Of a DNA stretch of 64,000 bases, positions 9,092 to 57,008 are shown piece by piece; position 1 is the stretch's first letter; each line of letters opens with the position of its first letter. This DNA comes from a bacterium (GTDB taxonomy: Bacteria; Patescibacteriota; Minisyncoccia; UBA6257; WO2-44-18). The notes beneath the pieces are model-generated. The model was given only the letters and a program-made list of their open reading frames with translations, was not told the origin of the DNA and searched no databases. Position numbers and translations under genes: made by a program. The stretch spans positions 12,092 through 76,091 of the forward strand of contig JAUSKF010000002.1 in the NCBI GenBank assembly GCA_030646995.1, read 5' to 3'.

Positions 9092-9598
9092 ATGAAATTG
9101 GAGGATCAATTCATAAAATTATACGACGATTTATCCGACGCAATTTTCCGGCATTGCTACTTTCGCGTATTTGAAAAGGAGCGCGCAAAGGAGCTGATGC
9201 AGGAGGTGTTCATCAAAACTTGGGAATATATGAAAAAAGGAGGGAAGATTGATAATCCTAAGGCCTTTCTCTATAAATCGGCGAATAACATAGTAATTGA
9301 TGAATCCCGTAAGAAAAAGGCGGCTTCGCTGGAGGCGATGGAAGAAACAGGATTTAATCCGGCCGATAACACTCACGAACGGCTGCTAAAATTTATCGAG
9401 GGCGGGGAGATGATCCGGCTTTTAAGAAAATTGGAGCCGAAGCACCGGCAGGCAATTTCAATGAAATATATAGACGACCTAGATATTAAAGAGATTGCGG
9501 AGGTGCTCGGAGAAACGGAAAATAACATCACCGTCCGAATCCATCGAGGCTTGAATCAGATAAGAGAAATTCTAAAAGAAAATGGAACAGAAATTTAA
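9092..9598 (+). CDS. ECF-type RNA polymerase sigma-70 family factor
   Basis: Region 2 (…FIKTWEYMKK…) and region 4 HTH (…DIKEIAEVLGETENNITVRIHRGLNQIR). Confidence 0.8.
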   Translation: MKLEDQFIKLYDDLSDAIFRHCYFRVFEKERAKELMQEVFIKTWEYMKKGGKIDNPKAFLYKSANNIVIDESRKKKAASLEAMEETGFNPADNTHERLLKFIEGGEMIRLLRKLEPKHRQAISMKYIDDLDIKEIAEVLGETENNITVRIHRGLNQIREILKENGTEI

Positions 9599-10412
9599 CG
9601 AAATAATTAAAAAAGCGAAAGAAATCCGGATGAAACCGGAAGAAAAATCCGATTTACGGGCGCGTCTTTATGCTGTGGCAAAAGGCGAAGCTGTAATGAG
9701 CGAGCCGGTTAGCCGTCAGGCCAATCAAAGGTCAGTAATTTTTAGATTTTTAAAACCCATGCCAATGTTTGCATCTTTGATGATTGCGCTGTTAGCCGGG
9801 GGAGGGGTCTCTTTCGCATCCGAAAATTCTTTACCGGGGGATATTTTATATCCGATTAAAGTGGGTATTAACGAGGAAATCCGCGCCAAGATCACCCTGT
9901 CCGCCGAAGCAAAGGCTGATTGGGAGGTCCGCAGAGCAGAGCGGAGACTTGAGGAGGCGGAAAAATTGTCCAACAATGGTGAGTTGGATGAGGAAAAGAA
10001 GGCCATAGTGGAAGCTAGATTTGAACAACACGCGGCTAAGGCAGGCCAGCAAGCGGAAAAAAGTGAGGAGCGTGCCTTGGTTAAAGCCAAAGCGAAATCT
10101 CTCGTGAAACTTGAAGCAGTGCTACAAAAGCACGGCCGAATTTTATCCCGTTTAGCAGAAAAAGACTCCATACAGGCCGCGGCTTCCATGAGAGTTGCCG
10201 CTGATGCAGATGTTCAAGCGGAAGCTCCAGTTCAGATTACCGATGACCAAGGTTCACAGGCGGTTCAAAATAAGATTGAGGAAGTTTCAAAATTTTTCTC
10301 CGCTGAAACCAGGGTGCCTGAAGAGTTCAAGGAAGAAATTCGCTATGAGGTAAAATCACTGCTTATACCGAAAAGGATTGAATCGAAAATTAAAGCGGGA
10401 ATAGAGTTGTAA
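9582..10412 (+). CDS. DUF5667-like protein (putative anti-sigma/partner of the ECF sigma), coiled-coil
   Basis: Overlaps sigma gene by 17 nt; TM segment then LPGDILYPIKVGINE… and coiled-coil; paralogue at 40758. Confidence 0.55.
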   Translation: MEQKFNEIIKKAKEIRMKPEEKSDLRARLYAVAKGEAVMSEPVSRQANQRSVIFRFLKPMPMFASLMIALLAGGGVSFASENSLPGDILYPIKVGINEEIRAKITLSAEAKADWEVRRAERRLEEAEKLSNNGELDEEKKAIVEARFEQHAAKAGQQAEKSEERALVKAKAKSLVKLEAVLQKHGRILSRLAEKDSIQAAASMRVAADADVQAEAPVQITDDQGSQAVQNKIEEVSKFFSAETRVPEEFKEEIRYEVKSLLIPKRIESKIKAGIEL

Positions 10413-10434
10413 GGGCGCTGCGTGCTATAATCAG

Positions 10435-10929
10435 GTGATGGTCAAGCATATTATTATTGCTTTGATGACGATTACTGTTGTGAATTGTGGCTCCGGGTTA
10501 GCTCTAGCTCATGGTTCCTTTGAATTGCCACTGGCTGGGTTAACTCCCTCTAATTTTTTCTATTTTCTCGATAGATTAGGCGAAACTCTTAGGGAGATTT
10601 TTGCTTTTAGTCCCGAAGCTAAAGTGAAATTACAGTTAAGCTTTGCCGCCGAACGGGTGGCGGAGCTGGAGTTAGAATTGGAGACGAATGGCGTAGAAGC
10701 AAAGGGCCTTGAGATAGCTCGCAATCGTCTTGCAGAACACATAGTGAGGGGCAATGAAATTATTCACGCAGAAATCGTGAAGGGGAGTGATATGGAAATG
10801 ATTTCTGAGGATTTTGACCATGATCTGAAAGAGCTCCTACAAAGAGCTGAGGAAGGTTCTGATGATTTAACCGCTGAGATAGAAAAAATGGAAGAGTTGT
10901 TGATGATTGAAGACGAGGGGCAAAAATAA
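10435..10929 (+). CDS. Hypothetical secreted/coiled-coil protein (short DUF5667-like)
   Basis: Signal-like N-terminus; LTPSNFFYFLDRLGE… loosely resembles the LPGDxLYPxK block; acidic C-terminus. Confidence 0.4.
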   Translation: MMVKHIIIALMTITVVNCGSGLALAHGSFELPLAGLTPSNFFYFLDRLGETLREIFAFSPEAKVKLQLSFAAERVAELELELETNGVEAKGLEIARNRLAEHIVRGNEIIHAEIVKGSDMEMISEDFDHDLKELLQRAEEGSDDLTAEIEKMEELLMIEDEGQK

Positions 10930-11127: not shown

Positions 11128-11177
11128 ACGCTATGAGGGATTATAGCATAAGGGAAACACTAAGTCAATGATACGTG

Positions 11178-11210
11178 GTACCAGACTTATAAAAAATAAA
11201 TAGAATGGTA
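11178..11210 (+). promoter_or_regulatory. GTACCAGACTTATA…ATGGTA motif (single copy) overlapping the M23 peptidase start codon
   Basis: gtaccagacttataaaaaataaatagaATGgta; same motif in three tandem copies at 48965-49078. Confidence 0.4.
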
Positions 11211-12392
11211 AGAAAAAGAATAATTCTGCTGGGCTTATTTTTGGGGATTGCCGCCGCTATTGTGGTTGCCCAAATTAAACCGGCCGGCCTTATCTTGGAT
11301 CCCTTACAAACAATTCGAATTTCTATCCCGACCGGAGCAACATTCATAGACGCAATGCGTTACCTGGGCGTAGCGACTTCTACCTCTCAATCTATTTTGA
11401 ATTCCGCTCAAGATAAATATAATCTGGCAAAGATTGTGAGCGGCCGGGAGCTGGCCCTTTCCTTCGATGTATTTTCCGGAGATTTAAAGAAAATGGTTTA
11501 TAAAATAGACGTTGATAATCAGTTAATCGTTGAAGACGCAGACTCGGAAGCTGATCCAGAAAATAAGTGGGGGGCAAAAGTTGAACCGATACCTTATGAA
11601 GTACGAGAGCGGTCAGGAGGAGGAGTAATTTCGAAATCATTATATCAAACCATTGTCAGCCAGGGCTTAGATGAGCGTTTAGCGCTGGCGCTAGCGGAGG
11701 CCTTTGCTTGGCAGATAGATTTTGCCACAGATATTCAAGAAGACGACAGTTTCAAAGTTGTCTACGAAGAGCGCTATCTGGATGGAAGATATGTCATGCC
11801 GGGAAGGATCATGGCGGCGAGCTTTATCAATGCGGGCGAATCCTTCAAGGGATATTATTTTGAGGGAACTGAGAAAACTCGCGCCGGTCATTATGATGAG
11901 AACGGCGGGGCTCTGCAGAAAGAATTTTTAAAATCTCCGCTTCAGTATAAATATATCAGCTCCGGATACTCTTTGGCGCGCTATAATCCGATTACCAAAA
12001 AAACATCACCGCATCGCGGCATTGATTATGCCGCTCCATCCGGCACACCCGCGGTTTCCGTTGGCGACGGCACAGTTACCCAGGCCGGCTGGAATGGTTA
12101 CTACGGGATTTCGGTTACTGTACGTCATAACGACACGTATAAAACGGTCTATGGTCATTTTTCTCGCCTAGCCAAGGGGATTAAGGTTGGCGCGAAAGTG
12201 AGTCAGGGTCAGGTTGTCGGCTATGTGGGCTCAACCGGGCTTTCCACAGGCCCCCACCTGCATTATGAAATGCATAAATTCAGTTCTTATGTGAATCCTT
12301 TCAAGGTAGAAATTCCACCGGGCGATCCGGTGAACGAGATGGATCGCGCAGCTTTTGAAAAAGTTGTAAGTAAATATTCGGGAAGCATATAA
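11205..12392 (+). CDS. M23 family metallopeptidase (murein DD-endopeptidase-like)
   Basis: HRGIDYAAPSGTPAVSVGDGTV…GHFSRL…VGYVGSTGLSTGPHLHYEM (HxxxD / HxH M23 motifs); N-terminal TM anchor. Confidence 0.85.
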   Translation: MVRKRIILLGLFLGIAAAIVVAQIKPAGLILDPLQTIRISIPTGATFIDAMRYLGVATSTSQSILNSAQDKYNLAKIVSGRELALSFDVFSGDLKKMVYKIDVDNQLIVEDADSEADPENKWGAKVEPIPYEVRERSGGGVISKSLYQTIVSQGLDERLALALAEAFAWQIDFATDIQEDDSFKVVYEERYLDGRYVMPGRIMAASFINAGESFKGYYFEGTEKTRAGHYDENGGALQKEFLKSPLQYKYISSGYSLARYNPITKKTSPHRGIDYAAPSGTPAVSVGDGTVTQAGWNGYYGISVTVRHNDTYKTVYGHFSRLAKGIKVGAKVSQGQVVGYVGSTGLSTGPHLHYEMHKFSSYVNPFKVEIPPGDPVNEMDRAAFEKVVSKYSGSI

Positions 12393-27955: not shown

Positions 27956-28327
27956 TTATTTGAAAGCTTTAGCTCCATAGGAGATAGTCGCGTTCACCGC
28001 TCCAATCACTATAGTCGCCAAAACCAAAGGTATTAATCCACTTATTGTAAGCCCCGAAGAGAAAATGTCAACCAAATAGATAAGGGCGCCGTTCAGCACA
28101 AAACCTAAGATTCCCATCGTTAGCCAGATTAGAGGTTTGAGCATAAAGCGCAAAATGGGTAGGACGAACGAGTTAGCGAGGGTCAAAAGGACTACGACGA
28201 TCGCGATTCCCATCCAATCATCGGTAACCGCGAACCCCGAGATTAAGTACTCCGCCGCCAATAAAGCCGCTAAGTTAGAACCGAGGCTAATTAATATGCT
28301 AATCATTACTTTATTATACCATCCCAC
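27956..28327 (-). CDS. DUF360/phage-holin-4-like membrane protein
   Basis: 4 TM helices with repeated …ISGF…/…LPILRF… pattern resembling the DUF360 (Phage_holin_4_2) family. Confidence 0.5.
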   Translation of the reverse strand: MGWYNKVMISILISLGSNLAALLAAEYLISGFAVTDDWMGIAIVVVLLTLANSFVLPILRFMLKPLIWLTMGILGFVLNGALIYLVDIFSSGLTISGLIPLVLATIVIGAVNATISYGAKAFK

Positions 28328-28332
28328 TTAAT

Positions 28333-29583
28333 TTATATCAGGCTGGTACGCGTAGCAAACATTGCCTTGCTGCGAACCTGGCGGTGATAGCGGATCACGA
28401 AGTTGTGAGTTTGATGAATAGCGCGCTCGATCAACTCTTGAAGTTCTTTTGGCGCTTCGGCCATGCCGATTACTTTGCGATGAGGTTTGGCGTACGAAAC
28501 AAGTCGTATGTCGTCAGTCGTGTGTCGTTTGTGGAATTCGTCCAGTACTCGTTTCGCCGCCCGATATTGGGTAATACCGCCATCGATCACGATCAGATCG
28601 GGATATGGCCATTCGGGATGATTTAAGCGGCGCCCCAAAACCTCACTAATCATCCTCGGGTCGTCACGAGTAGGCGCTGATTTTATCTTAAATTTCCGGT
28701 AAGAGTTTTTATCCGACATCCAAACGCCATCTCGTTTTACCAATACCGTCATCGCTCCTACCGCTTCTTTCCCGGCAAAGTTTGAGTTGTCGTAGCATTC
28801 TATTTTTTGGATATCCAACTCCGAGGGTTTAACGGTATAAGTATTCAAAAATTCTTTGTGCTCAAAGATTCTTTCCAATGCCCAGCGCTCCTTTTCGTCT
28901 TTAAGCGATGCCATAAGCTTTTTGCCCGTGCCATTTAAAACCATTTTTATCGCCCGGATATTCTTCTGATATTGTTTTCTATTCGCAATATTACTTTTCC
29001 AGATTCGCATTACCTGCCTGCCGGCAGGCAGGTTGGCGATTACTCCATCTTTTTTGCAGCAAAAACCGAAGCATTTTCCGATTTGCGCGTTTAAGCAGTC
29101 GCGGAAATGAAGTTGGAAGCAAGAGCAGTAGGGGAATGAGCGGCGAAGTAATTTTAAAACAATCCGCAGGGCGCCACCGTCGGTGAAGGGGCCGATCCGT
29201 GCACGACTAACGACTAACGACGAACGACGATGAAGATTTTCATGCCCAACGACGATTTTCGGGAAGGTGTCCTTTGTAAAGTGGACATAAGAATAAGTCT
29301 TGTCGTCCATCCACAAAACGTTGTATTTCGGCTTTAAAGATTTAATCAGCCGCGATTCTTCTATCAGGGCTTCGATGTCGGAGCGTAAAACCGTGTATTC
29401 CAAATGATCCGCTTCTTCGTGAAGGGACTGGGTTTTCAGGTCGGTAATCTTCAAATACGATTTAAGCCTATTTTTGAGATTAGCCGCCTTTCCTATATAT
29501 AGGACTGCATTGCCCTGATAGAAGGTATAAACTCCTGGTTCGGTGGGTGAGTTTTTAATTTTTTGGATAATTGACTGGTGCAT
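28333..29583 (-). CDS. uvrC: UvrC-like excinuclease, short form (GIY-YIG plus RNase-H-like endonuclease domain, no C-terminal HhH)
   Basis: N-terminal PGVYTFYQGNAVLYIGKAANLKNRLKSYL (GIY-YIG of UvrC); C-terminal …IECYDNSNFAG…PDLIVIDGGITQ… endonuclease V-like block; 416 aa vs ~600 typical. Confidence 0.7.
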   Translation of the reverse strand: MHQSIIQKIKNSPTEPGVYTFYQGNAVLYIGKAANLKNRLKSYLKITDLKTQSLHEEADHLEYTVLRSDIEALIEESRLIKSLKPKYNVLWMDDKTYSYVHFTKDTFPKIVVGHENLHRRSSLVVSRARIGPFTDGGALRIVLKLLRRSFPYCSCFQLHFRDCLNAQIGKCFGFCCKKDGVIANLPAGRQVMRIWKSNIANRKQYQKNIRAIKMVLNGTGKKLMASLKDEKERWALERIFEHKEFLNTYTVKPSELDIQKIECYDNSNFAGKEAVGAMTVLVKRDGVWMSDKNSYRKFKIKSAPTRDDPRMISEVLGRRLNHPEWPYPDLIVIDGGITQYRAAKRVLDEFHKRHTTDDIRLVSYAKPHRKVIGMAEAPKELQELIERAIHQTHNFVIRYHRQVRSKAMFATRTSLI

Positions 29584-35839: not shown

Positions 35840-35969
35840 CACAACCCCGCATCTTTTGCCAATTCGGCACAAGGTGCGGGGCTTTATTTTTCTCCCATTC
35901 GGATGTACCATCCCACAATAGTTATATTTGTCTGGTATATGAATAAGCTATACTTTGTTTAGTAAGTAT

Positions 35970-47403: not shown

Positions 47404-48768
47404 ATGAACGAGGAAATAACTCCCAAAGTAGAGACGAAAGCATCCGGGTTTAACGGACTAGGAATTGCGCCGGGCATATTAGAAATGTTGGCTAAATTCG
47501 GTTATGAAACTCCGACTCCAATCCAAGAGCAGGCTATTCCGGTAGCAATGCAGGGAAAAGATATGGTGGGCATCGCTCAAACCGGCACGGGTAAAACTTT
47601 TGCTTTCGGAATTCCGATGATTCAGCGTTTGGCGCAAATCAAAGGCAGGGGATTAGTAGTACTTCCAACCCGCGAGCTGGCTACACAGGTAGATGAATCA
47701 CTTCACAAAATCGGAGGTCCGGGTTTACGCACTGCAGTTTTAATTGGCGGTATGGCAATGGGACCGCAAAAAGGCGCTTTGGCTCGTGATCCGCATATTA
47801 TTGTGGCCACCCCCGGACGCTTAAATGACCATCTTCAGCAAAGACTGGTGAGTTTGAGTAATGTGAAAATTGTGGTGCTTGATGAAGCCGACAGAATGTT
47901 GGATATGGGTTTTGCTCCGCAAATTCAGAAAATTTTTAACGCTCTTCCGGCTGAACGCCAAACGATGCTTTTTTCCGCCACAATGCCTCCGGAAATTATG
48001 ACGATGGCGACTAAGCATATGAAGCTGCCTATTCGCATTGAAGTAGCGCGATCCGGAAGTACCGCCGACAAAGTTACGCAGGAAATTTTTATTATCCGCA
48101 AAGAAGACAAAGTTCGCTTACTTGAAAAGCTTCTTCAGCAATATATCGGACCGGTATTAATTTTTACCAGAACTAAGCACGGAGCTAAGCGGCTTACTAG
48201 AGATGTTGCCGATATGGGTCACACCTCCGCCGAGTTGCACTCTAATCGCTCGGTCAATCAGCGCCGCGAAGCTTTGGACGGATTCAAAGCCGGAAAATAT
48301 CGCGTATTAATCGCTACCAATATTGCAGCCCGCGGTATTGATGTGAGCGGGATTGAATTGGTAGTCAATTTTGATTTACCGAGCGATACCGACGACTACG
48401 TGCACCGCATTGGCCGCACTGCTCGCGCCGGCGCTGAAGGTCACGCCATTTCTCTCGCTACTCCTGAACAACGAGGCGAGCTTCGCGACATTGAACGCCT
48501 GATTCAAAAGCGTTTGCAGGTTTCTCCGGTTCCGGAGCTTCCGCCTGCCCGACCGACAAGATACGTCCCAAGGGACGAGCCGAGATCTTTTCGTGGCGGC
48601 GGTCGGCCATCTTTTGGCGGAAGCCACGCTCAGCGGGGCGGTTCTCGCTCCGGTGGCGCTGGTCGCCCAAGTTTTGGGGGAGCCCTCCGCCGGCCGGCGG
48701 ACCGCCCGCATCCAGGAGGTTCTTTCGGCGGCGCTCGCCGCTCTCCTCGCCCCCGATTCCGCCGCTAG
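47404..48768 (+). CDS. DEAD-box ATP-dependent RNA helicase with Arg/Gly/Pro-rich C-terminal tail
   Basis: Q-motif, AQTGTGKT (Walker A), DEAD, SAT, HRIGRTARAG; 454 aa. Confidence 0.9.
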   Translation: MNEEITPKVETKASGFNGLGIAPGILEMLAKFGYETPTPIQEQAIPVAMQGKDMVGIAQTGTGKTFAFGIPMIQRLAQIKGRGLVVLPTRELATQVDESLHKIGGPGLRTAVLIGGMAMGPQKGALARDPHIIVATPGRLNDHLQQRLVSLSNVKIVVLDEADRMLDMGFAPQIQKIFNALPAERQTMLFSATMPPEIMTMATKHMKLPIRIEVARSGSTADKVTQEIFIIRKEDKVRLLEKLLQQYIGPVLIFTRTKHGAKRLTRDVADMGHTSAELHSNRSVNQRREALDGFKAGKYRVLIATNIAARGIDVSGIELVVNFDLPSDTDDYVHRIGRTARAGAEGHAISLATPEQRGELRDIERLIQKRLQVSPVPELPPARPTRYVPRDEPRSFRGGGRPSFGGSHAQRGGSRSGGAGRPSFGGALRRPADRPHPGGSFGGARRSPRPRFRR

Positions 48769-48825
48769 TTTATAATAGGTGCTATACTATTCCAGAAAGG
48801 TCTTTGGTTTTTCACAAAAAATAAA

Positions 48826-48921
48826 ATGATCATTCTGAAAGAAGGAGAGGGCGAAAATTGCCCGACCTGCAGCCATCCGAAACACGAGGGAAAGCCCTGC
48901 GATTGCGGTTGCGGAAAATAA
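48826..48921 (+). CDS. Tiny Cys/His-rich peptide (31 aa), candidate metal-binding
   Basis: MIILKEGEGENCPTCSHPKHEGKPCDCGCGK; own hairpin terminator 48924-48957; sits at the head of the copper cluster; no SD. Confidence 0.35.
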   Translation: MIILKEGEGENCPTCSHPKHEGKPCDCGCGK

Positions 48922-48964
48922 CTTTTAAAAAACTGCTCTCGCAAGAGGGCAGTTTTTGTTACGT

Positions 48965-49078
48965 GTACCAGACTTATAGAAATTTAATGGGATGGTACGC
49001 GTACCAGACTTATAGAACTAAAGTGGGATGGTACTGCGTGCGTACCAGACTTATAGAAATTTAATAGGATGGTATAAT
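48965..49078 (+). repeat. Three tandem ~34-37-bp direct repeats (GTACCAGACTTATAGAA-N7-GGGATGGTAC) upstream of the copper cluster; the last unit ends in TGGTATAAT
   Basis: Units at 48965-48998, 49001-49034, 49042-49078; a related single unit at 11178-11210. Confidence 0.75.
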
Positions 49079-49102
49079 TAAAATAATTTCGTGAGAGGGT
49101 TG

Positions 49103-49582
49103 ATGGAAAAATTCTGGCTTTGGTATGAGCGGCACTATCGCATCAGTCTGGCGATTACCGCTTTTTTGTTTACCCTACAAATCGTCCATTTGATTTGGCT
49201 CGCCACAGACATTGTCTTGCCAGCAATTATCGGCACGCCCCATGTTTTCGCAGAAAATTCTTTCGCCAGAATCATTCTGGCGTTGGTGGATTACACCGAG
49301 ATACCGGCTCTCATCTCCGTCAATATACTTTATTTACGCCATCTGAAAATTTCGCCGTCCTTCAAGCATTACACCTACCTCGTCTTCATTAATCTCCAGT
49401 GGGCGCATTTGTTTTGGATTACTGATGAGATTATTCTTGAAACTTTTGGAAAGCATGGCGTCACGCCTGAATGGAATGTGTGGCTGGCGGTGCTGGCAAT
49501 CGGAATCGATTATCTGGAGCTTCCGGTGATTTATGAAACACTAAGGGAATTTTCCCGTCGTTTTTTAAGAAAAGCAGTATAA
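49103..49582 (+). CDS. Hypothetical polytopic membrane protein (first gene of the copper cluster)
   Basis: ATG 49103; 159 aa with 4-5 TM; no family assigned. Confidence 0.5.
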   Translation: MEKFWLWYERHYRISLAITAFLFTLQIVHLIWLATDIVLPAIIGTPHVFAENSFARIILALVDYTEIPALISVNILYLRHLKISPSFKHYTYLVFINLQWAHLFWITDEIILETFGKHGVTPEWNVWLAVLAIGIDYLELPVIYETLREFSRRFLRKAV

Positions 49583-49589
49583 TCAGGTT

Positions 49590-51656
49590 ATGAATTATAC
49601 CTGCCCGATGCATCCGGAGATAAAACGGAGTCAGCCCGGTATTTGCCCGGAATGCGGAATGACCCTAGTACCCGATAAAGAAAAACGGAGTTCGGATAAA
49701 CACGCCGGCCACCGCACTGCGGATTTTTTAAAAAAGTTTTCAATCAGCTTATTATTGACCATTCCGGTTATTTTATATTCCGACATCATCACCAATCTGA
49801 CCGGATTTCGGGCGCCAACTTTCCCTGGCGCCGGTTTTCTGCCGTTGATCTTAAGTTCAATAGTATTTTTTTATTGCGGATGGGTTTTCTTGACGGGCGC
49901 CTGGAGAGAAATAACCGCAAAATTGCCGGGTATGATGACGCTGATAGCCATCGCCACCTCTACCGCCTACCTATACAGCGTTATTTCTGTCTTTCTGAAA
50001 GGAGAAACTCTTTTTTGGGAGTTGACCACGTTAATCACTGTGATGCTTCTGGGTCATTGGCTGGAAATGCGTGCGGTCAGTGGCGCTCAAGGAGCGCTTA
50101 AAGAACTTTCAAAACTACTACCGGACACAGCAGAAATTTTGCGAAACGGCCAGCCGGAAAAAATACCGGTGGGTGATTTGAGAGAATGGGATTTGGTTTT
50201 CGTCCGACCGGGAGGCCGGATTCCGGCTGATGGGATAATTTCTGACGGACAATCACAAGTAAATGAGGCAATGATTACCGGCGAATCAGCGCCCGTTGCA
50301 AAGAAAATCGGCAGTGAAGTGATCGCAGGCACTATCAACGGCGACGGTTCTTTAACTATAAAAATCACCAAAGTAGGAGAAAAAACTTTTTTGTCCGGAA
50401 TAATGCGTCTTGTGTTGGAGGCTCAATCTTCTAAATCCCGTCTTCAAGTTCTTTCTGACAGGGCCGCCTTTTACCTGACGACAGTTGCGGTGGCCGGAGG
50501 AGGGGCAACTTTAATTTCTTGGATTCTTTCCGGGGCGGGAGCGGGTTTCGCGATTGAAAGAATGGTGGCAGTGCTGGTTATTGCTTGCCCTCACGCTCTC
50601 GGACTCGCCGTTCCACTGGTCGCCTCTATATCTACGACACTCGCGGCTCGCAACGGATTTTTAGTGCGTCAACGTTTAGCATTGGAGCAAGCCAGAAATA
50701 TTGACGTGGTTCTTTTTGATAAAACCGGCACGCTGACCAAGGGAGAGTTCGGCGTTACCAATATTTGGCCGGTGGGCTCGGAAAATGAAAAAGAAATTTT
50801 AGAACTGGCCGCTAGTGTGGATGCGCAATCGGAGCATGTTATCTCAAAGGCAATCGTCACAAGAGCGATGGGCGCGGGAACGAAACTAAAAGAAGTAAAA
50901 AACTTTAAACGATTACCCGGCAAGGGCGTGAGCGGAGAAATTGATGGCTCGGAAATAGCAGTCGGCGGGCAGGCAATGCTGGAAAGTTACGATTTAAATA
51001 TTGAAGGCGGCCTAAGAGAAATAACTGAAGCCGAAAGTAAAAAAGGAAAGACTTTAATCTTCTTAATTAAAGATAGAAAACTTTGGGGAATCTTGGCCTT
51101 GGCAGATTTAATACGCGAAGAATCGCGAGAGGCTATTTCGTCTTTGCAAAAATCCGGAGTAAGGGTTGCGATGATTACCGGTGATTCCGAGGGCGTGGCC
51201 GCTTGGGTTGCTGGTGAATTAAACATAAGTGAATATTTTTATAAGGTTTTGCCGGGTGAAAAAGCCGAGAAAGTGAAATTACTGCAATCTAAGGGGCAAA
51301 AAGTGGCGATGATCGGTGACGGCATCAACGACGCGCCGGCTCTTACGCAGGCTGACCTCGGCATCGCAATCGGCGCGGGGACTAACGTTGCAATTGAATC
51401 AGCTGGAATTATTTTAATGAGAAGCGATCCGCGGGATATTATAAAAATCATTAGACTCTCAAAGCTAACTTACTCCAAGATGATCCAAAATCTTTTCTGG
51501 GCGACCGGATATAATGTGGTGGCAATGCCGCTGGCCGCGGGAGTCCTAGTGAGCCAGGGGATTATTCTGGAACCGGCACTGGCGGCCTTACTGATGTCGG
51601 TCAGCACCATAATTGTGGCCTTGAACGCTGTCTTGTTGAAAAGAAGGCGTTTGTAA
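49590..51656 (+). CDS. Heavy-metal (copper) translocating P1B-type ATPase with CPH transmembrane motif
   Basis: N-terminal CPMHPE…CPECGM metal-binding motif, TGES, CPH (…VIACPHALGLAVP…), DKTGTLT, GDGINDAPAL; 688 aa. Confidence 0.9.
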   Translation: MNYTCPMHPEIKRSQPGICPECGMTLVPDKEKRSSDKHAGHRTADFLKKFSISLLLTIPVILYSDIITNLTGFRAPTFPGAGFLPLILSSIVFFYCGWVFLTGAWREITAKLPGMMTLIAIATSTAYLYSVISVFLKGETLFWELTTLITVMLLGHWLEMRAVSGAQGALKELSKLLPDTAEILRNGQPEKIPVGDLREWDLVFVRPGGRIPADGIISDGQSQVNEAMITGESAPVAKKIGSEVIAGTINGDGSLTIKITKVGEKTFLSGIMRLVLEAQSSKSRLQVLSDRAAFYLTTVAVAGGGATLISWILSGAGAGFAIERMVAVLVIACPHALGLAVPLVASISTTLAARNGFLVRQRLALEQARNIDVVLFDKTGTLTKGEFGVTNIWPVGSENEKEILELAASVDAQSEHVISKAIVTRAMGAGTKLKEVKNFKRLPGKGVSGEIDGSEIAVGGQAMLESYDLNIEGGLREITEAESKKGKTLIFLIKDRKLWGILALADLIREESREAISSLQKSGVRVAMITGDSEGVAAWVAGELNISEYFYKVLPGEKAEKVKLLQSKGQKVAMIGDGINDAPALTQADLGIAIGAGTNVAIESAGIILMRSDPRDIIKIIRLSKLTYSKMIQNLFWATGYNVVAMPLAAGVLVSQGIILEPALAALLMSVSTIIVALNAVLLKRRRL

Positions 51657-51670
51657 GCTAACTTACCAAT

Positions 51671-52012
51671 ATGGTTAAAGCGTTCTCAATTTTAATGTTG
51701 CTCGCTATCGGTCTAACCTTGGGGGCCGGTCTTTTTGTTTACGCCTCAGATCATTCGGAAGCTAACGGCCTCTGCCCAATATCCGTGATGTCAAAGGCCG
51801 CCTGCCCAGCCAAGAGCGGCCTTTTGAGCTTATTGTTGGCAATCAGCTTTCTGTTCGCTGTATTTTTTAACAAAAAAATCTTCGCATCATTAAAACCGAA
51901 GAAACAATACTATGGTCACCGGATCACCTTTTCCAGTCTCTATCAATTGAAATTTTCCGATTGGCTGACTTTGCATGAGAAACGCGACCCTTCTTTGTTT
52001 TTAGGGTATTGA
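51671..52012 (+). CDS. Small hypothetical membrane protein with two CP(x) motifs
   Basis: 113 aa; 2 TM; …NGLCPISVMSKAACPAKSG…; terminator 52040-52080. Confidence 0.35.
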   Translation: MVKAFSILMLLAIGLTLGAGLFVYASDHSEANGLCPISVMSKAACPAKSGLLSLLLAISFLFAVFFNKKIFASLKPKKQYYGHRITFSSLYQLKFSDWLTLHEKRDPSLFLGY

Positions 52013-52092
52013 TTTGCGCAGTCTAACTGCGTGTTTAGTATTACAAATCAATGCCCGCTTTAGTCGAGCGGGCATTTTTAACTGAAAGATAA

Positions 52093-52545
52093 ATGGACAA
52101 AAAATCATTCTTACTGGGTCTGAGCGCTATACTGATAGTAGTATCGGCTTTTGCTTTTATGGCGACCCGTTCTTCATCCGGACAAAGCATAACCGTCTAT
52201 AAATCTCCCACTTGTGGGTGCTGCGGAGGATATATCACCTATCTGAAGAAAAACAATTTCCAGGTTACGGTCGTGGAAAAAACAAACCGTACGGAATTAA
52301 GGGAAAAATTCCACATCCCGGCTGATATGGAGAGTTGCCATACTTCCGTTGTGAATAATTATGTTGTCGAAGGGCATGTCCCAGTAGAGGCAATCAATAA
52401 GTTACTGGCGGAAAAGCCCGATATAGACGGCATTACCTTACCGGAAATGCCGGCCGGATCTCCCGGAATGGGCGGCGCAAAATCCGGTCCGTGGACAGTC
52501 TACGCCTTATCGAAAGGCGCAAAATCAGAATTCCTAATTAAATAA
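52093..52545 (+). CDS. DUF411 family metal-binding protein (CopG-like periplasmic copper protein)
   Basis: …VYKSPTCGCCGGYITYLKK…SCHTSVVNNYVVEGHVP…LPEMPAGSPGMGG… matches DUF411 conserved Cys/His/Met blocks. Confidence 0.75.
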   Translation: MDKKSFLLGLSAILIVVSAFAFMATRSSSGQSITVYKSPTCGCCGGYITYLKKNNFQVTVVEKTNRTELREKFHIPADMESCHTSVVNNYVVEGHVPVEAINKLLAEKPDIDGITLPEMPAGSPGMGGAKSGPWTVYALSKGAKSEFLIK

Positions 52546-52547
52546 AT

Positions 52548-53771
52548 ATGGCTTTCCTAACTTTGGTTGAATTCGTTGTTGTGTATCTTTGGGGTTGGTT
52601 AGTCCTGACTATTCTTGCCAGTGTCGGCATTTTCTTGCTAATTAAAAAGTACTATAGAATAGAGATGGCGATTTTTGGTGTGATAGCGGTCGTGGGGCTG
52701 GTGGCGATTTTATTCGGACCCAAAATCTTCCCAAAGGCTTTTGAATACCCCCCATTTCTTACCACCTTCGGACCATCAGACGGTCCGGCTCTGCCGTTCA
52801 AAAGCGCCATTGCTTTCCTGAAAAACTATTCAAAAATGGAAAAGGTGGAGAATATCGCGCGTAATCCAAACGATATTCCTCCACCAATTACCCGCAATTA
52901 TCCTGAAAAGATAAAAATTAATCTGACGACGAAAGAAGTGATATCGGAAATTGCGCCCGGCACCTTCATGAATTACTGGACGTTTAACGGCACGGTTCCG
53001 GGTCCATTTTTACGGGTTCGCGAGGGCGATACGGTGGAATTGACGCTCACCAATGACAAGTCCAGCGTCCACGCGCACAACATAGATCTGCACGCGGTGA
53101 ATGGGCCTGGAGGAGGAGCGGCGCTGACAAATGTTGATCCGGGCGAAACAAAGTCTTTTACTTTCCAAGCTCTAAACCCCGGGTTATATGTATATCACTG
53201 CGCTCATCCCAATGTCGCTACGCATGACACGCATGGTATGTACGGCTTGATTTTAGTTGAACCGATAGGAGGATTAACAAAAGTTGATAAGGAATTTTAT
53301 GTGATGCAGGGCGAGCTTTACACGACGGGCGATATTGGTAAAAAGGGATTGCAAATTTTTGACGCAGTCAAAATGCTGAACGGCAAACCGGAATACATAG
53401 TCTTCAACGGAAAAACTTCAGCGTTAACCACGAACGTCAAAGCGAAGGTGGGGGACCGGGTCCGGTTTTTTGTCGGTAACGGAGGAGTAAATCTGATTTC
53501 TTCCTTCCATGTCATCGGCGAAATTTTCGACACTGTTTATCCAGAGGCTTCAATTGGTGGGGCGTTATTCAAGAATGTTCAGACAACGATAGTGCCGGCT
53601 GGCGGGGCGACAATAACGGAATTTTTGCTCAACGTTCCGGGTAAATATCCTTTCGTGGATCATGCTTTGGCCAGAATTGAGCGCGGCGCCTGGGGAGTTT
53701 TAGATGTAGCGGGCGAAGAAGACGTCAGAATCTTTTCTGGAGATTTTGAAGCAGACGACCATAGTCATTAA
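52548..53771 (+). CDS. nirK: Copper-containing nitrite reductase (NirK)-like two-domain cupredoxin protein with N-terminal membrane extension
   Basis: …HAHNIDLHAVNGPGGGAALTNVDPGETKSFTFQALNPGLYVYHCAHPNVATHDTHGMYGLILVEP… reproduces the type-1/type-2 Cu ligand pattern of NirK. Confidence 0.7.
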   Translation: MAFLTLVEFVVVYLWGWLVLTILASVGIFLLIKKYYRIEMAIFGVIAVVGLVAILFGPKIFPKAFEYPPFLTTFGPSDGPALPFKSAIAFLKNYSKMEKVENIARNPNDIPPPITRNYPEKIKINLTTKEVISEIAPGTFMNYWTFNGTVPGPFLRVREGDTVELTLTNDKSSVHAHNIDLHAVNGPGGGAALTNVDPGETKSFTFQALNPGLYVYHCAHPNVATHDTHGMYGLILVEPIGGLTKVDKEFYVMQGELYTTGDIGKKGLQIFDAVKMLNGKPEYIVFNGKTSALTTNVKAKVGDRVRFFVGNGGVNLISSFHVIGEIFDTVYPEASIGGALFKNVQTTIVPAGGATITEFLLNVPGKYPFVDHALARIERGAWGVLDVAGEEDVRIFSGDFEADDHSH

Positions 53772-53805
53772 TTAACAAATAGCCGGAAGGTGGTAGAATA
53801 GAAGG

Positions 53806-54941: not shown

Positions 54942-57008
54942 ATGACGAAACAATCTTTAGCTTTGCTGGTTTCCGCGATGCTGGTCTTAACGGGGCTAGC
55001 CGTTTCTTACAGTTTAGTCGCCCAAGCGCAAACAAATTTAAATTCTTCGGTTTCTGTAAAAAAACAACCGGATGATGGACTTTTTACTATTACGGTTAGT
55101 GATTCCGATGGTATCCAGGAATTTAATTTTCAACCGGCCGCGGGGGCTAGATATGGTGGGGAATTGAAATGCCCAAAAACTTTCTCAAACAACAACGTAT
55201 TATTTGTTGAATCAGAAGCTTTTAATCCGGCGATGAAAGTGACAATTACCGATTGCAAAAAAAATGTCGCTGAATTTGAAATCGGCCCATTAACAAATGG
55301 ATCCGGCAAAGGAGTTTTGACCAATCAGCCGAAAGTGGAGCCAGTTCCTACGCCGGCGCCGAAACCGGAACCAAAAGAAGAATCAACTGCGCCTTCTAAA
55401 GAAGACATCAAATATCCCATTAAAGAATTAGGAAATTGCGGCAGTGAGACAGCTTGCCGAACATACTGCGACAAACCTGATAACTATTCCGAGTGCTTTG
55501 CTTTTGCAAAAAAATTCGGTCTTTTAGATGAGAAATTGGCGAATAAATCAGAAGAGGAATTAGAAGATTTCGCCAAGACTCTAAAAACCGGTGGTCCTGG
55601 TGGCTGTAAAGACCAAAAGTCTTGCGAAGCTTATTGCAACGACACCTCTCGCTTAAATGAATGTTTGGCTTTTGGCGAGAAGCACGGCCTTATGAGTCAA
55701 AAAGATCTGGAAGAGGGCAGGAAAATACAAGCTATTCTAGCGCAAGGCGGAACGTTGCCCGGTGGATGCAAAAATAAAAATGAGTGCGAGGCCTACTGCG
55801 CTGGCGGGGATCATATTGAAGAATGTTTGGCCTTCGCGGAAAAAGCCGGATTTATGCCACCGGAGGAATTGAAGCAAGCAAGAAAGGCGATGGAATTTAT
55901 GGCCCGAGGAGAAACTCCAGGCAACTGCAAATCTAAAGCGCAATGCGAGGCCTACTGTGAAGATGAAAGTCATTTTGAGTCCTGCATCGCTTTCGCGGAA
56001 AAAGCAGGGTTTATGTCTCAAGAAGAGCTGCAAATGGCGAAAAAATCCGGTGGTAAAGGCCCCGGTGGCTGTCGTGGTAAATCACAATGCGAAACTTTTT
56101 GCCAAGACGAACGCAACATTGAACAATGCCTGTCTTTTGCAGAAGAACACGGATTGATGAAGAAGGAGGACGTTGAAAGAGCTAGGAAGACCGGCGGGAA
56201 GGGGCCTGGAGGATGTCGCGGTAAAGCATGTGAAACTTTCTGTGACACTCCGGATCATCAGGATGTTTGCGTAGAGTTCGCCAAAGAGCATGGCCTGCTT
56301 TCTGAAGAAGATCTCAAACGAATGGAGGAGGGTCAACAAAGTTTCCGCAACGCTCTGGATCAAGCTCCGCCGGAAGTTAAGGAATGTTTAGCAAAACAAG
56401 GAATTGATGAAAATAATCCGCCGAGAAGGGGCATAGAAAAACAAATGCAGGAATGCTTCCAGGCCTTCCAGGGGCAAGGCGGACCTGGTGAGGGTGGTAC
56501 TGGCGGCCAGCACAATGAAGAATTCTCTCGCCAGCACGATGAAATACGATCGGCTCAATTCCAGAAAGAAGGTGGTCCGTCCGGCGAACACAACCAAGAA
56601 CGCTCCAGCCAACAATATTTAGAAGGCAAGCCGCCGATGCACGACTCAACAGTTTCCGCCGAACAGTATTCAGGAGGCAAGCCACCAGAGCACGACTCCA
56701 AGATTTCCTCAGAACAGTATTTAGGCGGAGATAAAAGGATGACGTGTCCTTCTATGCCGACAGTGGATTCTTGCCCTGACGGCCAAGAAAAGTTTGCCGC
56801 TTACAGCTCTCCGGATTGCGGCACTTACTATGCCTGCCAGCCAAAGCAACAAGAGTATCAACAACAGCAACACTCAGAAGACCAATCGCGCCTTCAATCC
56901 CAACAGCAATATCCGACCCGAGAGGTTTCGTCACCAACTACCGCAAATATCAATGATTCTTTGTTGGGGCAAGTTCTACACATCCTAGCCAATCTTTTGC
57001 ACTTGTAG
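54942..57008 (+). CDS. Secreted repeat protein with seven tandem ~42-aa four-cysteine modules and Gln-rich C-terminus
   Basis: Signal peptide; repeats of C(K/R)xxxxCExxCxxxxxxxxCxxFAExxG(L/F)Mxx(E/K)(E/D)L between ~55400 and 56330. Confidence 0.6.
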   Translation: MTKQSLALLVSAMLVLTGLAVSYSLVAQAQTNLNSSVSVKKQPDDGLFTITVSDSDGIQEFNFQPAAGARYGGELKCPKTFSNNNVLFVESEAFNPAMKVTITDCKKNVAEFEIGPLTNGSGKGVLTNQPKVEPVPTPAPKPEPKEESTAPSKEDIKYPIKELGNCGSETACRTYCDKPDNYSECFAFAKKFGLLDEKLANKSEEELEDFAKTLKTGGPGGCKDQKSCEAYCNDTSRLNECLAFGEKHGLMSQKDLEEGRKIQAILAQGGTLPGGCKNKNECEAYCAGGDHIEECLAFAEKAGFMPPEELKQARKAMEFMARGETPGNCKSKAQCEAYCEDESHFESCIAFAEKAGFMSQEELQMAKKSGGKGPGGCRGKSQCETFCQDERNIEQCLSFAEEHGLMKKEDVERARKTGGKGPGGCRGKACETFCDTPDHQDVCVEFAKEHGLLSEEDLKRMEEGQQSFRNALDQAPPEVKECLAKQGIDENNPPRRGIEKQMQECFQAFQGQGGPGEGGTGGQHNEEFSRQHDEIRSAQFQKEGGPSGEHNQERSSQQYLEGKPPMHDSTVSAEQYSGGKPPEHDSKISSEQYLGGDKRMTCPSMPTVDSCPDGQEKFAAYSSPDCGTYYACQPKQQEYQQQQHSEDQSRLQSQQQYPTREVSSPTTANINDSLLGQVLHILANLLHL

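Follow-up and report, generated by a model that had tools for sequence, protein, structure and literature searches.

Which of the sequences standing in front of a copper-export and nitrite-reduction gene cluster actually belong to that cluster? The question arises at positions 48826-53771 of a 64,000-nucleotide stretch of contig JAUSKF010000002.1 from a member of the Patescibacteria (the whole stretch is hereafter called the window, and all coordinates are those of the window). A preliminary description of this DNA had regarded the region as one copper/nitrite module, which starts with a 31-amino acid (aa) Cys-rich peptide and three tandem repeats and continues with a membrane protein gene (called mem163 here), a P1B ATPase gene, a small membrane protein gene (orf113), a DUF411 gene and the gene for a copper-containing nitrite reductase (NirK). 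All of these features are present where it placed them, on the plus strand. In our judgement, the region probably consists of two unlike parts, namely an ordinary, conserved copper-pump/NirK cluster and a lineage-specific promoter cassette placed before it, and the repeat array is not a copper-specific operator. The gene content of the cluster is that of an already known kind of cluster of groundwater Patescibacteria.

The conserved core, the variable head and the repeat motif

The order ATPase-orf113-DUF411-NirK recurs in four related Patescibacteria loci (L001, L015/L016 and L002/L003). The NirK sequences are 89% identical to that of the window in L001 and 81% identical in the next-closest relatives, a figure attached to L015/L016 and L002/L003 as a group. 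In L001 and L015/L016, the flanks are also syntenic, the SET, AhpC and DEAD-box helicase genes lying to one side, and the genes from the ATPase to NirK plus that for a 264-aa protein to the other. Between the helicase and ATPase genes, these loci carry three other genes (∼100, 99 and 161 aa), none of which is present in the window. Conversely, the small open reading frame (ORF) for the peptide, the repeats and mem163 are absent from the related Cu/NirK clusters, including those of L001 and L015. Because the relatives carry other genes at this place and lack these three features, segment 48769-49589 of the window, which contains the small ORF, the putative terminator of the helicase gene, the three repeat copies and mem163, represents a lineage-specific replacement. 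The proposed copper and NirK unit thus stands for the core from the ATPase to NirK, whose order recurs in relatives, but not for the peptide, the repeats and mem163 as its members.

The three tandem copies of the repeat motif occupy positions 48957-49078 on the plus strand. Each 41-nt copy (48957-48997, 48993-49033 and 49034-49074) follows the consensus TGnTACGY-GTACCAGACTTATA-N11-GGATGGTA. The 33-nt cores start at 48965, 49001 and 49042, with spacings of 36 and 41 nt, and Tandem Repeats Finder reported a period of 36, 3.1 copies and a score of 143. The number of chance occurrences expected in shuffled sequence is 0.00. Alignment of 14 copies from the window and other groundwater Patescibacteria contigs yielded the consensus TGnTACGY-GTACCAGACTTATA-(A/T-rich)-GGATGGTA, that is, a 14-bp inverted repeat (TGnTAC-NN-GTACCA) followed by AGACTTATA, an A/T-rich stretch and GGATGGTA. 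The inverted repeat at the left end has a 6-2-6 layout, and the repeat junction TGGTACGCGTACCA (48993-49006) in the window is a perfect 14-bp palindrome. Internal copies mostly end in TGGTACGYG, where the next unit already begins, and one window copy ends in TGGTACTGC. All five independent terminal copies run on into TAAT or CAAT, giving TGGTA(T/C)AAT; in the window, TGGTATAAT (49070-49078; -10 hexamer at 49073-49078) forms the end of the third copy and would be an extended -10 sequence.

The motif also stands before genes that have no relation to copper. A single copy at 11170-11210 (plus strand, core 11178) reaches into the start of an M23 peptidase gene (11205-12392). Another single copy, at 28317-28357 (minus strand, core 28349), ends in TGGTATAAT; 6 nt later comes the ATG (28312) of a gene for a PF04020 (holin-IV-like) four-transmembrane protein, which is followed by genes for SecG and a solute-binding protein. 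A weaker, sixth copy at 35905-35946 (minus strand, core 35937) adjoins a tRNA gene. In other contigs, three exact tandem copies with a 36-nt period precede the gene for an HtrA-like protease (L011), two copies precede a 134-aa secreted ORF (L008 and L013) and one copy precedes the PF04020 ortholog (L009 and L010). The scan of genome contigs was performed with a 12-nt inner spacer, which placed window-type copies (11 nt) outside its reach; it still recovered L008, a 12-nt spacer variant. No match was found in a scan of viral contigs, and a search of the related loci showed that the Cu/NirK clusters of the relatives are without the motif. Two further matches, one before a glycosidase-like ORF in a metagenome (L012), which lacks the left palindrome, and one in a Chitinophagaceae contig (L007), were rejected as probable chance matches.

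By its sequence and its genomic contexts, the motif is a predicted promoter/operator element that is generic across envelope genes and not specific to copper. It would be a sigma-70-type promoter with a weak -35 region and an upstream palindrome bound by a dimeric regulator, the centre of the palindrome lying ∼44 nt upstream of the presumed transcription start. This start presupposes TATAAT as the -10 hexamer and, as at the 28317 copy, the A of the ATG as the first transcribed nucleotide. The distance from the -10 sequence to the ATG is 6 nt at two loci (the PF04020 gene of the window, with its ATG at 28312, and that of L009/L010), which suggests leaderless or near-leaderless mRNAs in this lineage. 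A canonical TTGACT-17-TATAAT promoter is present before a tRNA gene in this genome, indicating that the organism uses standard sigma-70 signals. The motif, which tends to multiply locally, would be common to a set of envelope genes of this lineage of Patescibacteria, and extra copies would add regulator sites. The third copy of the array would drive mem163, and, because only 7 nt and no hairpin separate mem163 from the ATPase gene, the array most likely drives the ATPase gene and orf113 as well.

The most similar known arrangement is that of extended -10 promoters with an upstream palindrome (class II-like, with the 5-4-5 boxes of the CRP/FNR family). The terminal copy shares with these promoters the TGnTATAAT sequence and a 14-bp 5-4-5 palindrome, TGGTA-CGCG-TACCA, centred ∼44 nt upstream of the presumed start. 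In contrast to CRP/FNR-type sites, however, the whole 33-41-nt unit is conserved rather than the palindrome alone, and the units stand in tandem at 36-nt spacing. We know of no regulator box that matches the half-site sequence of the window. To our knowledge, the transcription signals of Patescibacteria have hardly been characterized, and a literature search for promoter motifs in this group found nothing relevant.

Several points weigh against a promoter/operator element of this kind. Both roles are assigned from sequence alone. The -35 region of the motif (CTTATA) is poor, agreeing at three of six positions, and a consensus scan did not list the site. With a spacing of 36 bp, neighbouring palindromes of the array face different sides of the helix, an uncommon arrangement for sites that are bound cooperatively. 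The promoter geometry fits poorly at the 11178 copy, which overlaps the start codon predicted for the M23 peptidase gene. Finally, about a dozen instances of the motif were collected, with a genome scan whose spacer missed window-type copies.

In another view, the array arose when slippage at the palindromic ends duplicated a promoter in tandem; the extra copies would be neutral, with no regulatory function, and only the last one would matter. Copies within an array are indeed more alike than copies from different loci (the three cores of L011 are identical, and copies 1 and 3 of the window differ by 1 nt), and the copy number varies from one to three between loci. However, arrays of two or three copies arose independently at at least three loci in different genomes, with intact copies in exact register, which suggests selection or a strong mutational bias. 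We regard purely neutral duplication as unlikely, although it is among the better of the alternatives to the promoter/operator reading.

Small ORF, hairpin and mem163 in the non-conserved head

The 31-aa ORF (48826-48921, plus strand) starts with ATG, encodes MIILKEGEGENCPTCSHPKHEGKPCDCGCGK with five Cys and two His residues, and would give the tryptic peptide EGEGENCPTCSHPK. A possible extended -10 sequence, TGCTATACT, lies upstream at 48780-48788, and the GC content of the ORF (51%) is coding-like. Among the 173 small ATG-initiated ORFs of the window, only three (∼2%) contain at least five Cys residues; Cys-richness alone is thus weak evidence. The exact peptide sequence does not occur as a called gene in a collection of ∼15 billion proteins. 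A phmmer search of 1.84 billion representative proteins matched only a 4960-aa eukaryote-like repeat protein of low complexity and biased composition, a match that we judged spurious, and tblastn found no match in 16 related loci. There is no Pfam match to the peptide even at an E-value of 10 and no NCBIfam match, no Shine-Dalgarno sequence is visible upstream of the ORF, and the NCBI annotation of the contig skips it (the ATPase stands between locus tags 00835 and 00845). Over the stretch 47404-48921, the DEAD-box helicase gene and the small ORF share one frame, and no stop codon lies between the TAG of the helicase gene (48766-48768) and the ATG of the small ORF. Read-through of the helicase stop codon into the peptide was considered and rejected, because the position of the stop is conserved in L001.

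Six nucleotides downstream of the small ORF lies a hairpin (48928-48957, plus strand) with a 13-bp stem, then TTTTTGTT / UUUUUGUU, flanked by an A-run and a T-run. It has a folding energy of -18.8 kcal/mol (z -4.8) and, being a GC-rich hairpin with a U-run, the form of an intrinsic terminator. This hairpin had been taken as the peptide's own terminator. The hairpin itself is real, but it is also the first terminator after the stop codon of the helicase gene (48768) and may belong to that gene. It is predicted to end the helicase transcript and any transcript of the peptide.

The small ORF could still yield a real product, be it a Cys-rich micro-protein specific to this lineage or a leader peptide whose translation influences the hairpin. 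Its ATG start, its coding-like GC content, its position between TGCTATACT and a strong hairpin, and the rarity of equally Cys-rich ORFs in the window speak for such a product. Conservation, annotation and a Shine-Dalgarno sequence are lacking, though, the predicted fold shows no alternative antiterminator pairing near the hairpin, and the genes beyond the hairpin would be served by a separate promoter. We therefore consider a real product doubtful, to about the same degree as neutral duplication of the array.

The first gene behind the array, mem163 (49103-49582, plus strand; the ORF is open from 49091), is a different case. It has a Shine-Dalgarno sequence, GAGAGGG, before the ATG at 49103, and an exact match in the protein collection (P0121) starts at this same ATG. 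We obtained 1477 homolog matches in the candidate phyla radiation (CPR), Chloroflexota and Actinomycetota. Three segments of the protein passed a hydropathy scan, and the AlphaFold2 model, with a predicted local distance difference test (pLDDT) score of 88, is a four-helix bundle. The sequence contains a two-fold internal duplication, in which LQxxHLxW..D and DYxExP each occur twice, with invariant Gln, His, Trp and Asp residues and DYxExP. No fold match was found in PDB and no family in Pfam or NCBIfam. The protein represents a real, widespread and uncharacterized family. Its inclusion in the copper module could not be sustained, as its homologs occur in unrelated contexts and it is absent from the Cu/NirK clusters of the relatives.

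Two readings of the head as a regulatory unit fare worse than those discussed so far. In the first, every repeat would by itself be a full promoter recognized by an alternative sigma factor, such as the extracytoplasmic function (ECF) sigma factor encoded at 9092-9598, and the array would be a triple promoter of an envelope-stress regulon. The genes downstream of the motif (for the HtrA-like protease, the M23 peptidase, and membrane and secreted proteins) are of the sort usually seen in ECF or envelope-stress regulons, and the ECF sigma and DUF5667 proteins are encoded 1.6 kb upstream of the 11178 copy. However, no AAC-type -35 or CGT-type -10 sequence is present at ECF spacing, the TAAT/CAAT extension occurs only at terminal copies and thus points to a housekeeping -10 sequence, and no copy of the motif lies upstream of the sigma factor gene itself. 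An ECF promoter is hence improbable here. As for the arrangement of this locus (9092-10929), the ECF-type sigma factor gene overlaps a gene for an anti-sigma-like DUF5667 membrane protein, a second DUF5667 gene follows, and the locus lies upstream of two tRNA genes and the 11178 copy.

The second, in which the peptide is a metallochaperone or metallothionein and the three repeats form the operator of a copper/nitrite regulator of the whole module, was the view of the preliminary description and can draw on the CxxC and CxCxC spacing of the peptide, its position next to copper genes, its coding-like GC content and the perfect palindrome at the repeat junction, as operators often are. It is nevertheless very improbable, since the peptide has no homolog and no family match, none of the four related clusters contains the peptide, the repeats or mem163, the same motif precedes the M23 peptidase, PF04020/SecG, HtrA-like and other non-copper genes, and the window gave no CsoR match in a tblastn search with a CsoR query from CPR bacteria, a search that did not extend to CopY and CueR.

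Proteins of the copper/NirK core

The ATPase gene (49590-51656, plus strand) encodes a copper-exporting P1B ATPase of the CopB type (P1B-3) with an N-terminal Cys/His heavy-metal-binding domain (HMBD). The protein matches TIGR01511 with 579 bits, its HMBD matches PF19335 with an E-value of 1e-12 (CPMHPE..CPECGM), and its best match in PDB is the CopA structure 3RFU (E-value 1.6e-134). It contains the motifs CPH333, GYNVVAMP (YN at 641), MSVST669 and DKTGT377. It thus agrees with P1B-3 ATPases in DKTGT and in the transmembrane signature CPH / (G)YN(X)4P / MSXST as defined in PMC5552934, but differs from them at the N-terminus, which is formed by the HMBD (PF19335) and not by a His-rich stretch. 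The His-rich N-terminus is the only family feature not found among the assignments of the ATPase, the CopG-type protein and NirK.

The next gene, orf113 (51671-52012, plus strand), encodes a small two-helix membrane protein that contains GLCPISVMSKAAC. Two motifs are conserved, namely G-x-C-P-[IV]-S-x2-S-x3-C after the first helix and LKFxxWxxLxEKRD at the C-terminus. The protein evolves fast (27-63% amino acid sequence identity), yet the position of its gene between the ATPase and DUF411 genes is kept. The DUF411 gene (52093-52545, plus strand) encodes a CopG-type copper-binding protein with a CGCC motif and an N-terminal signal or anchor helix (hydrophobic segment at residues 3-28). It matches PF04214 with 87.7 bits (cutoff 27, E-value 4e-25) and the PDB entry 6WIS with an E-value of 6e-21 over 115 residues, with CGCC, SCHT and MPxGSPGM aligned. 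The likeness to CopG (6WIS) thus extends to the CxCC, SCHT and MPxGSPGM motifs; unlike CopG, the window protein carries a membrane anchor or signal at its N-terminus, and its gene directly precedes that of NirK instead of belonging to a cop resistance operon. A literature search on CopG/DUF411 gave nothing usable.

NirK (52548-53771, plus strand) belongs to the AniA-like class and carries an N-terminal two-helix membrane anchor. It matches TIGR02376 with 325.2 bits (curated cutoff 296.3) and the structures 2DV6 and 1KBV with E-values of about 1e-98 to 1e-100. The seven copper ligands expected of a NirK, including the type-2 His residues, are all present. The type-1 ligands are H177, C218, H226 and M231, which match the ligand blocks in alignments to 2DV6 and 6TFD. 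We aligned NirK from 21 CPR sequences (Kaiser-, Doudna- and Zambryskibacteria, Paceibacterota and other Patescibacteria); H177, C218 and H226 are invariant, and M231 is replaced by Leu in three. The type-2 ligands H182, H217 and H372 and the catalytic residues D180 and H321 are invariant throughout. By profile and ligands, the protein is a copper-containing nitrite reductase with predicted activity. The three homologs in which Leu takes the place of the axial type-1 Met are P0088, P0110 and P0117, and a C-terminal His (residue 407, 53766-53768) is the same in all 21 sequences.

A hydropathy scan identified two N-terminal hydrophobic helices in NirK (residues 1-36 and 35-65). Within residues 1-65, the helices are parted by a basic loop, KKYYR, and a conserved FGPxDGPxLP linker follows. 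The N-terminal extension of ∼100 aa that had been pointed out for this NirK exists but is not peculiar to it. Because 20 of the 21 aligned homologs share the extension (the remaining one, P0118, is a 311-aa sequence without this N-terminus), it is a trait of the NirK family. The occurrence of NirK in a genome of the CPR had also been considered noteworthy in itself. It is not new: Danczak et al. (2017, PMC5581439) reported NirK in Parcubacteria/CPR, with conserved copper ligands and forming its own clade, and NirK has been described as common among groundwater CPR bacteria (PMC11188291). The window NirK shows 58-74% identity to annotated NirK of Kaiser-, Doudna- and Zambryskibacteria and Paceibacterota, and it shares with the CPR clade the type-1 as well as the type-2 ligands, a length of ∼405-410 aa and the N-terminal membrane part, with no substantive difference. 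Compared with AniA-like class II enzymes (Neisseria AniA, 1KBV, and Hyphomicrobium HdNIR, 2DV6), the cupredoxin cores match, and the HxxDxH, HC, H-x4-M, FHVIGE and DHAL blocks are identical; the window protein differs from these enzymes in its anchor, which is a two-helix hairpin with the FGPxDGPxLP linker in place of a lipobox or an extra cupredoxin or cytochrome domain, and in the C-terminal His that is invariant in the CPR family.

In more distant CPR loci (L017, L018, L019 and L020), a Cu-ATPase gene is also located near NirK, with other accessory genes. Two of these loci, L018 and L020, carry a gene for a CsoR repressor. Like the window, these CsoR-headed clusters have a Cu-ATPase and accessory copper proteins close to NirK; they differ in having CsoR and a CopA-type (HMA) ATPase, whereas the window has no CsoR detectable by the search described above and uses a generic promoter motif. 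The gene content of L018 and L020 shows that the accessory set of NirK is highly variable between lineages. The stretches concerned (1084-7308 in L020 and 6001-13038 in L018) contain, besides the CsoR-family repressor and Cu-ATPase genes, genes for YHS, DUF305 and DsbA/DsbB or HMA-DsbD proteins.

Families, motifs and metal ligands can be read directly from these sequences, and from them we infer a route of copper handling. The ATPase would pump Cu(I) out of the cytoplasm, and the anchored orf113 product, with its conserved Cys pair, and the anchored CopG-type protein would handle copper on the outer face. NirK, held at the membrane by its two-helix N-terminal hairpin, would be loaded there with type-1 and type-2 copper and would reduce nitrite to nitric oxide (NO). 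Against this route, it must be said that supply of copper to NirK and plain copper detoxification would look the same in the sequence, so that supply is a presumption.

Directly 3′ of the NirK stop codon, at 53772-53799, there is a good match to an extended -10 promoter (TTAACA-16-TG-TAGAAT), before the gene for the conserved 264-aa secreted protein; this gene is therefore probably a separate transcription unit. Further downstream (54942-57008), the window encodes a 688-aa secreted protein with about seven tandem Cys-rich repeats (GPGGCK..C.AYC....H..C..FA...G.M) and no Pfam family; L001 seems to contain a diverged counterpart of 767 aa.

The spacer between orf113 and DUF411 and the proposed regulon

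The spacer between orf113 and the DUF411 gene contains a conserved intergenic element (52010-52081, plus strand). Among four related loci, the 80-nt spacer is 71-81% identical, as compared with 52-60% for other non-coding flanks and 58-63% for the orf113 gene. The predicted fold (-28 kcal/mol, z -4.8) has hairpin 1 inside an outer stem (TGATTT/AAATCA), with hairpin 2 and a T-run after it. Hairpin 2 (AATGCCCGCT..AGCGGGCATT) is invariant in stem and loop and ends in a terminator-like manner; at 52050-52081 it forms a GC-rich hairpin with a U-run, the form of an intrinsic terminator, and a terminator consensus scan reported it for the minus strand only (stem 52076-52050). In the alignment, 94.6% of the cells pair, and two compensatory pairs are present, both in hairpin 1. 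With four sequences, this covariation is modest, the observed value being reached in 38 of 500 shuffles. Among Rfam families, only tRNAs pass the gathering score in the window, and the best hits in 48700-52200 are weak (E-value 0.47 or worse).

The conservation of the spacer sequence suggests that something recognizes it specifically. The element is probably a partial terminator or attenuator that would separate or balance the two halves of the cluster, and it may act as an attenuator or as a protein-binding RNA or DNA element. One point counts against this view of the cluster: the hairpin may stop transcription, in which case the DUF411 and NirK genes would need a promoter of their own, and neither inspection by eye nor a consensus scan found one inside the spacer.

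Motif and spacer can be combined into a broader proposal, which we put forward only tentatively. An envelope regulon extending across the lineage could have the motif unit as its operator/promoter, its strength or response being tuned by local amplification to two or three tandem copies, and the three-helix element of the spacer could be a conditional attenuator, perhaps responding to a protein or to a ligand such as copper or NO, that gates the CopG-type protein and NirK. Members of the regulon would include the HtrA-like protease, the M23 peptidase, PF04020/SecG and small membrane proteins, and the copper/NirK cluster would have been captured by it in this genome. As far as our literature search extends, neither the promoter/operator unit nor the spacer has been described.

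For the biology of these organisms, the core and the cassette carry different implications. The series ATPase-orf113-CopG-NirK, in which all partners are membrane-anchored, provides a concrete model for the metallation of an extracytoplasmic copper enzyme. If the proposed role of the motif unit is true, the unit would be a first handle on a regulon in uncultured Patescibacteria and could be used for annotating their transcription units.

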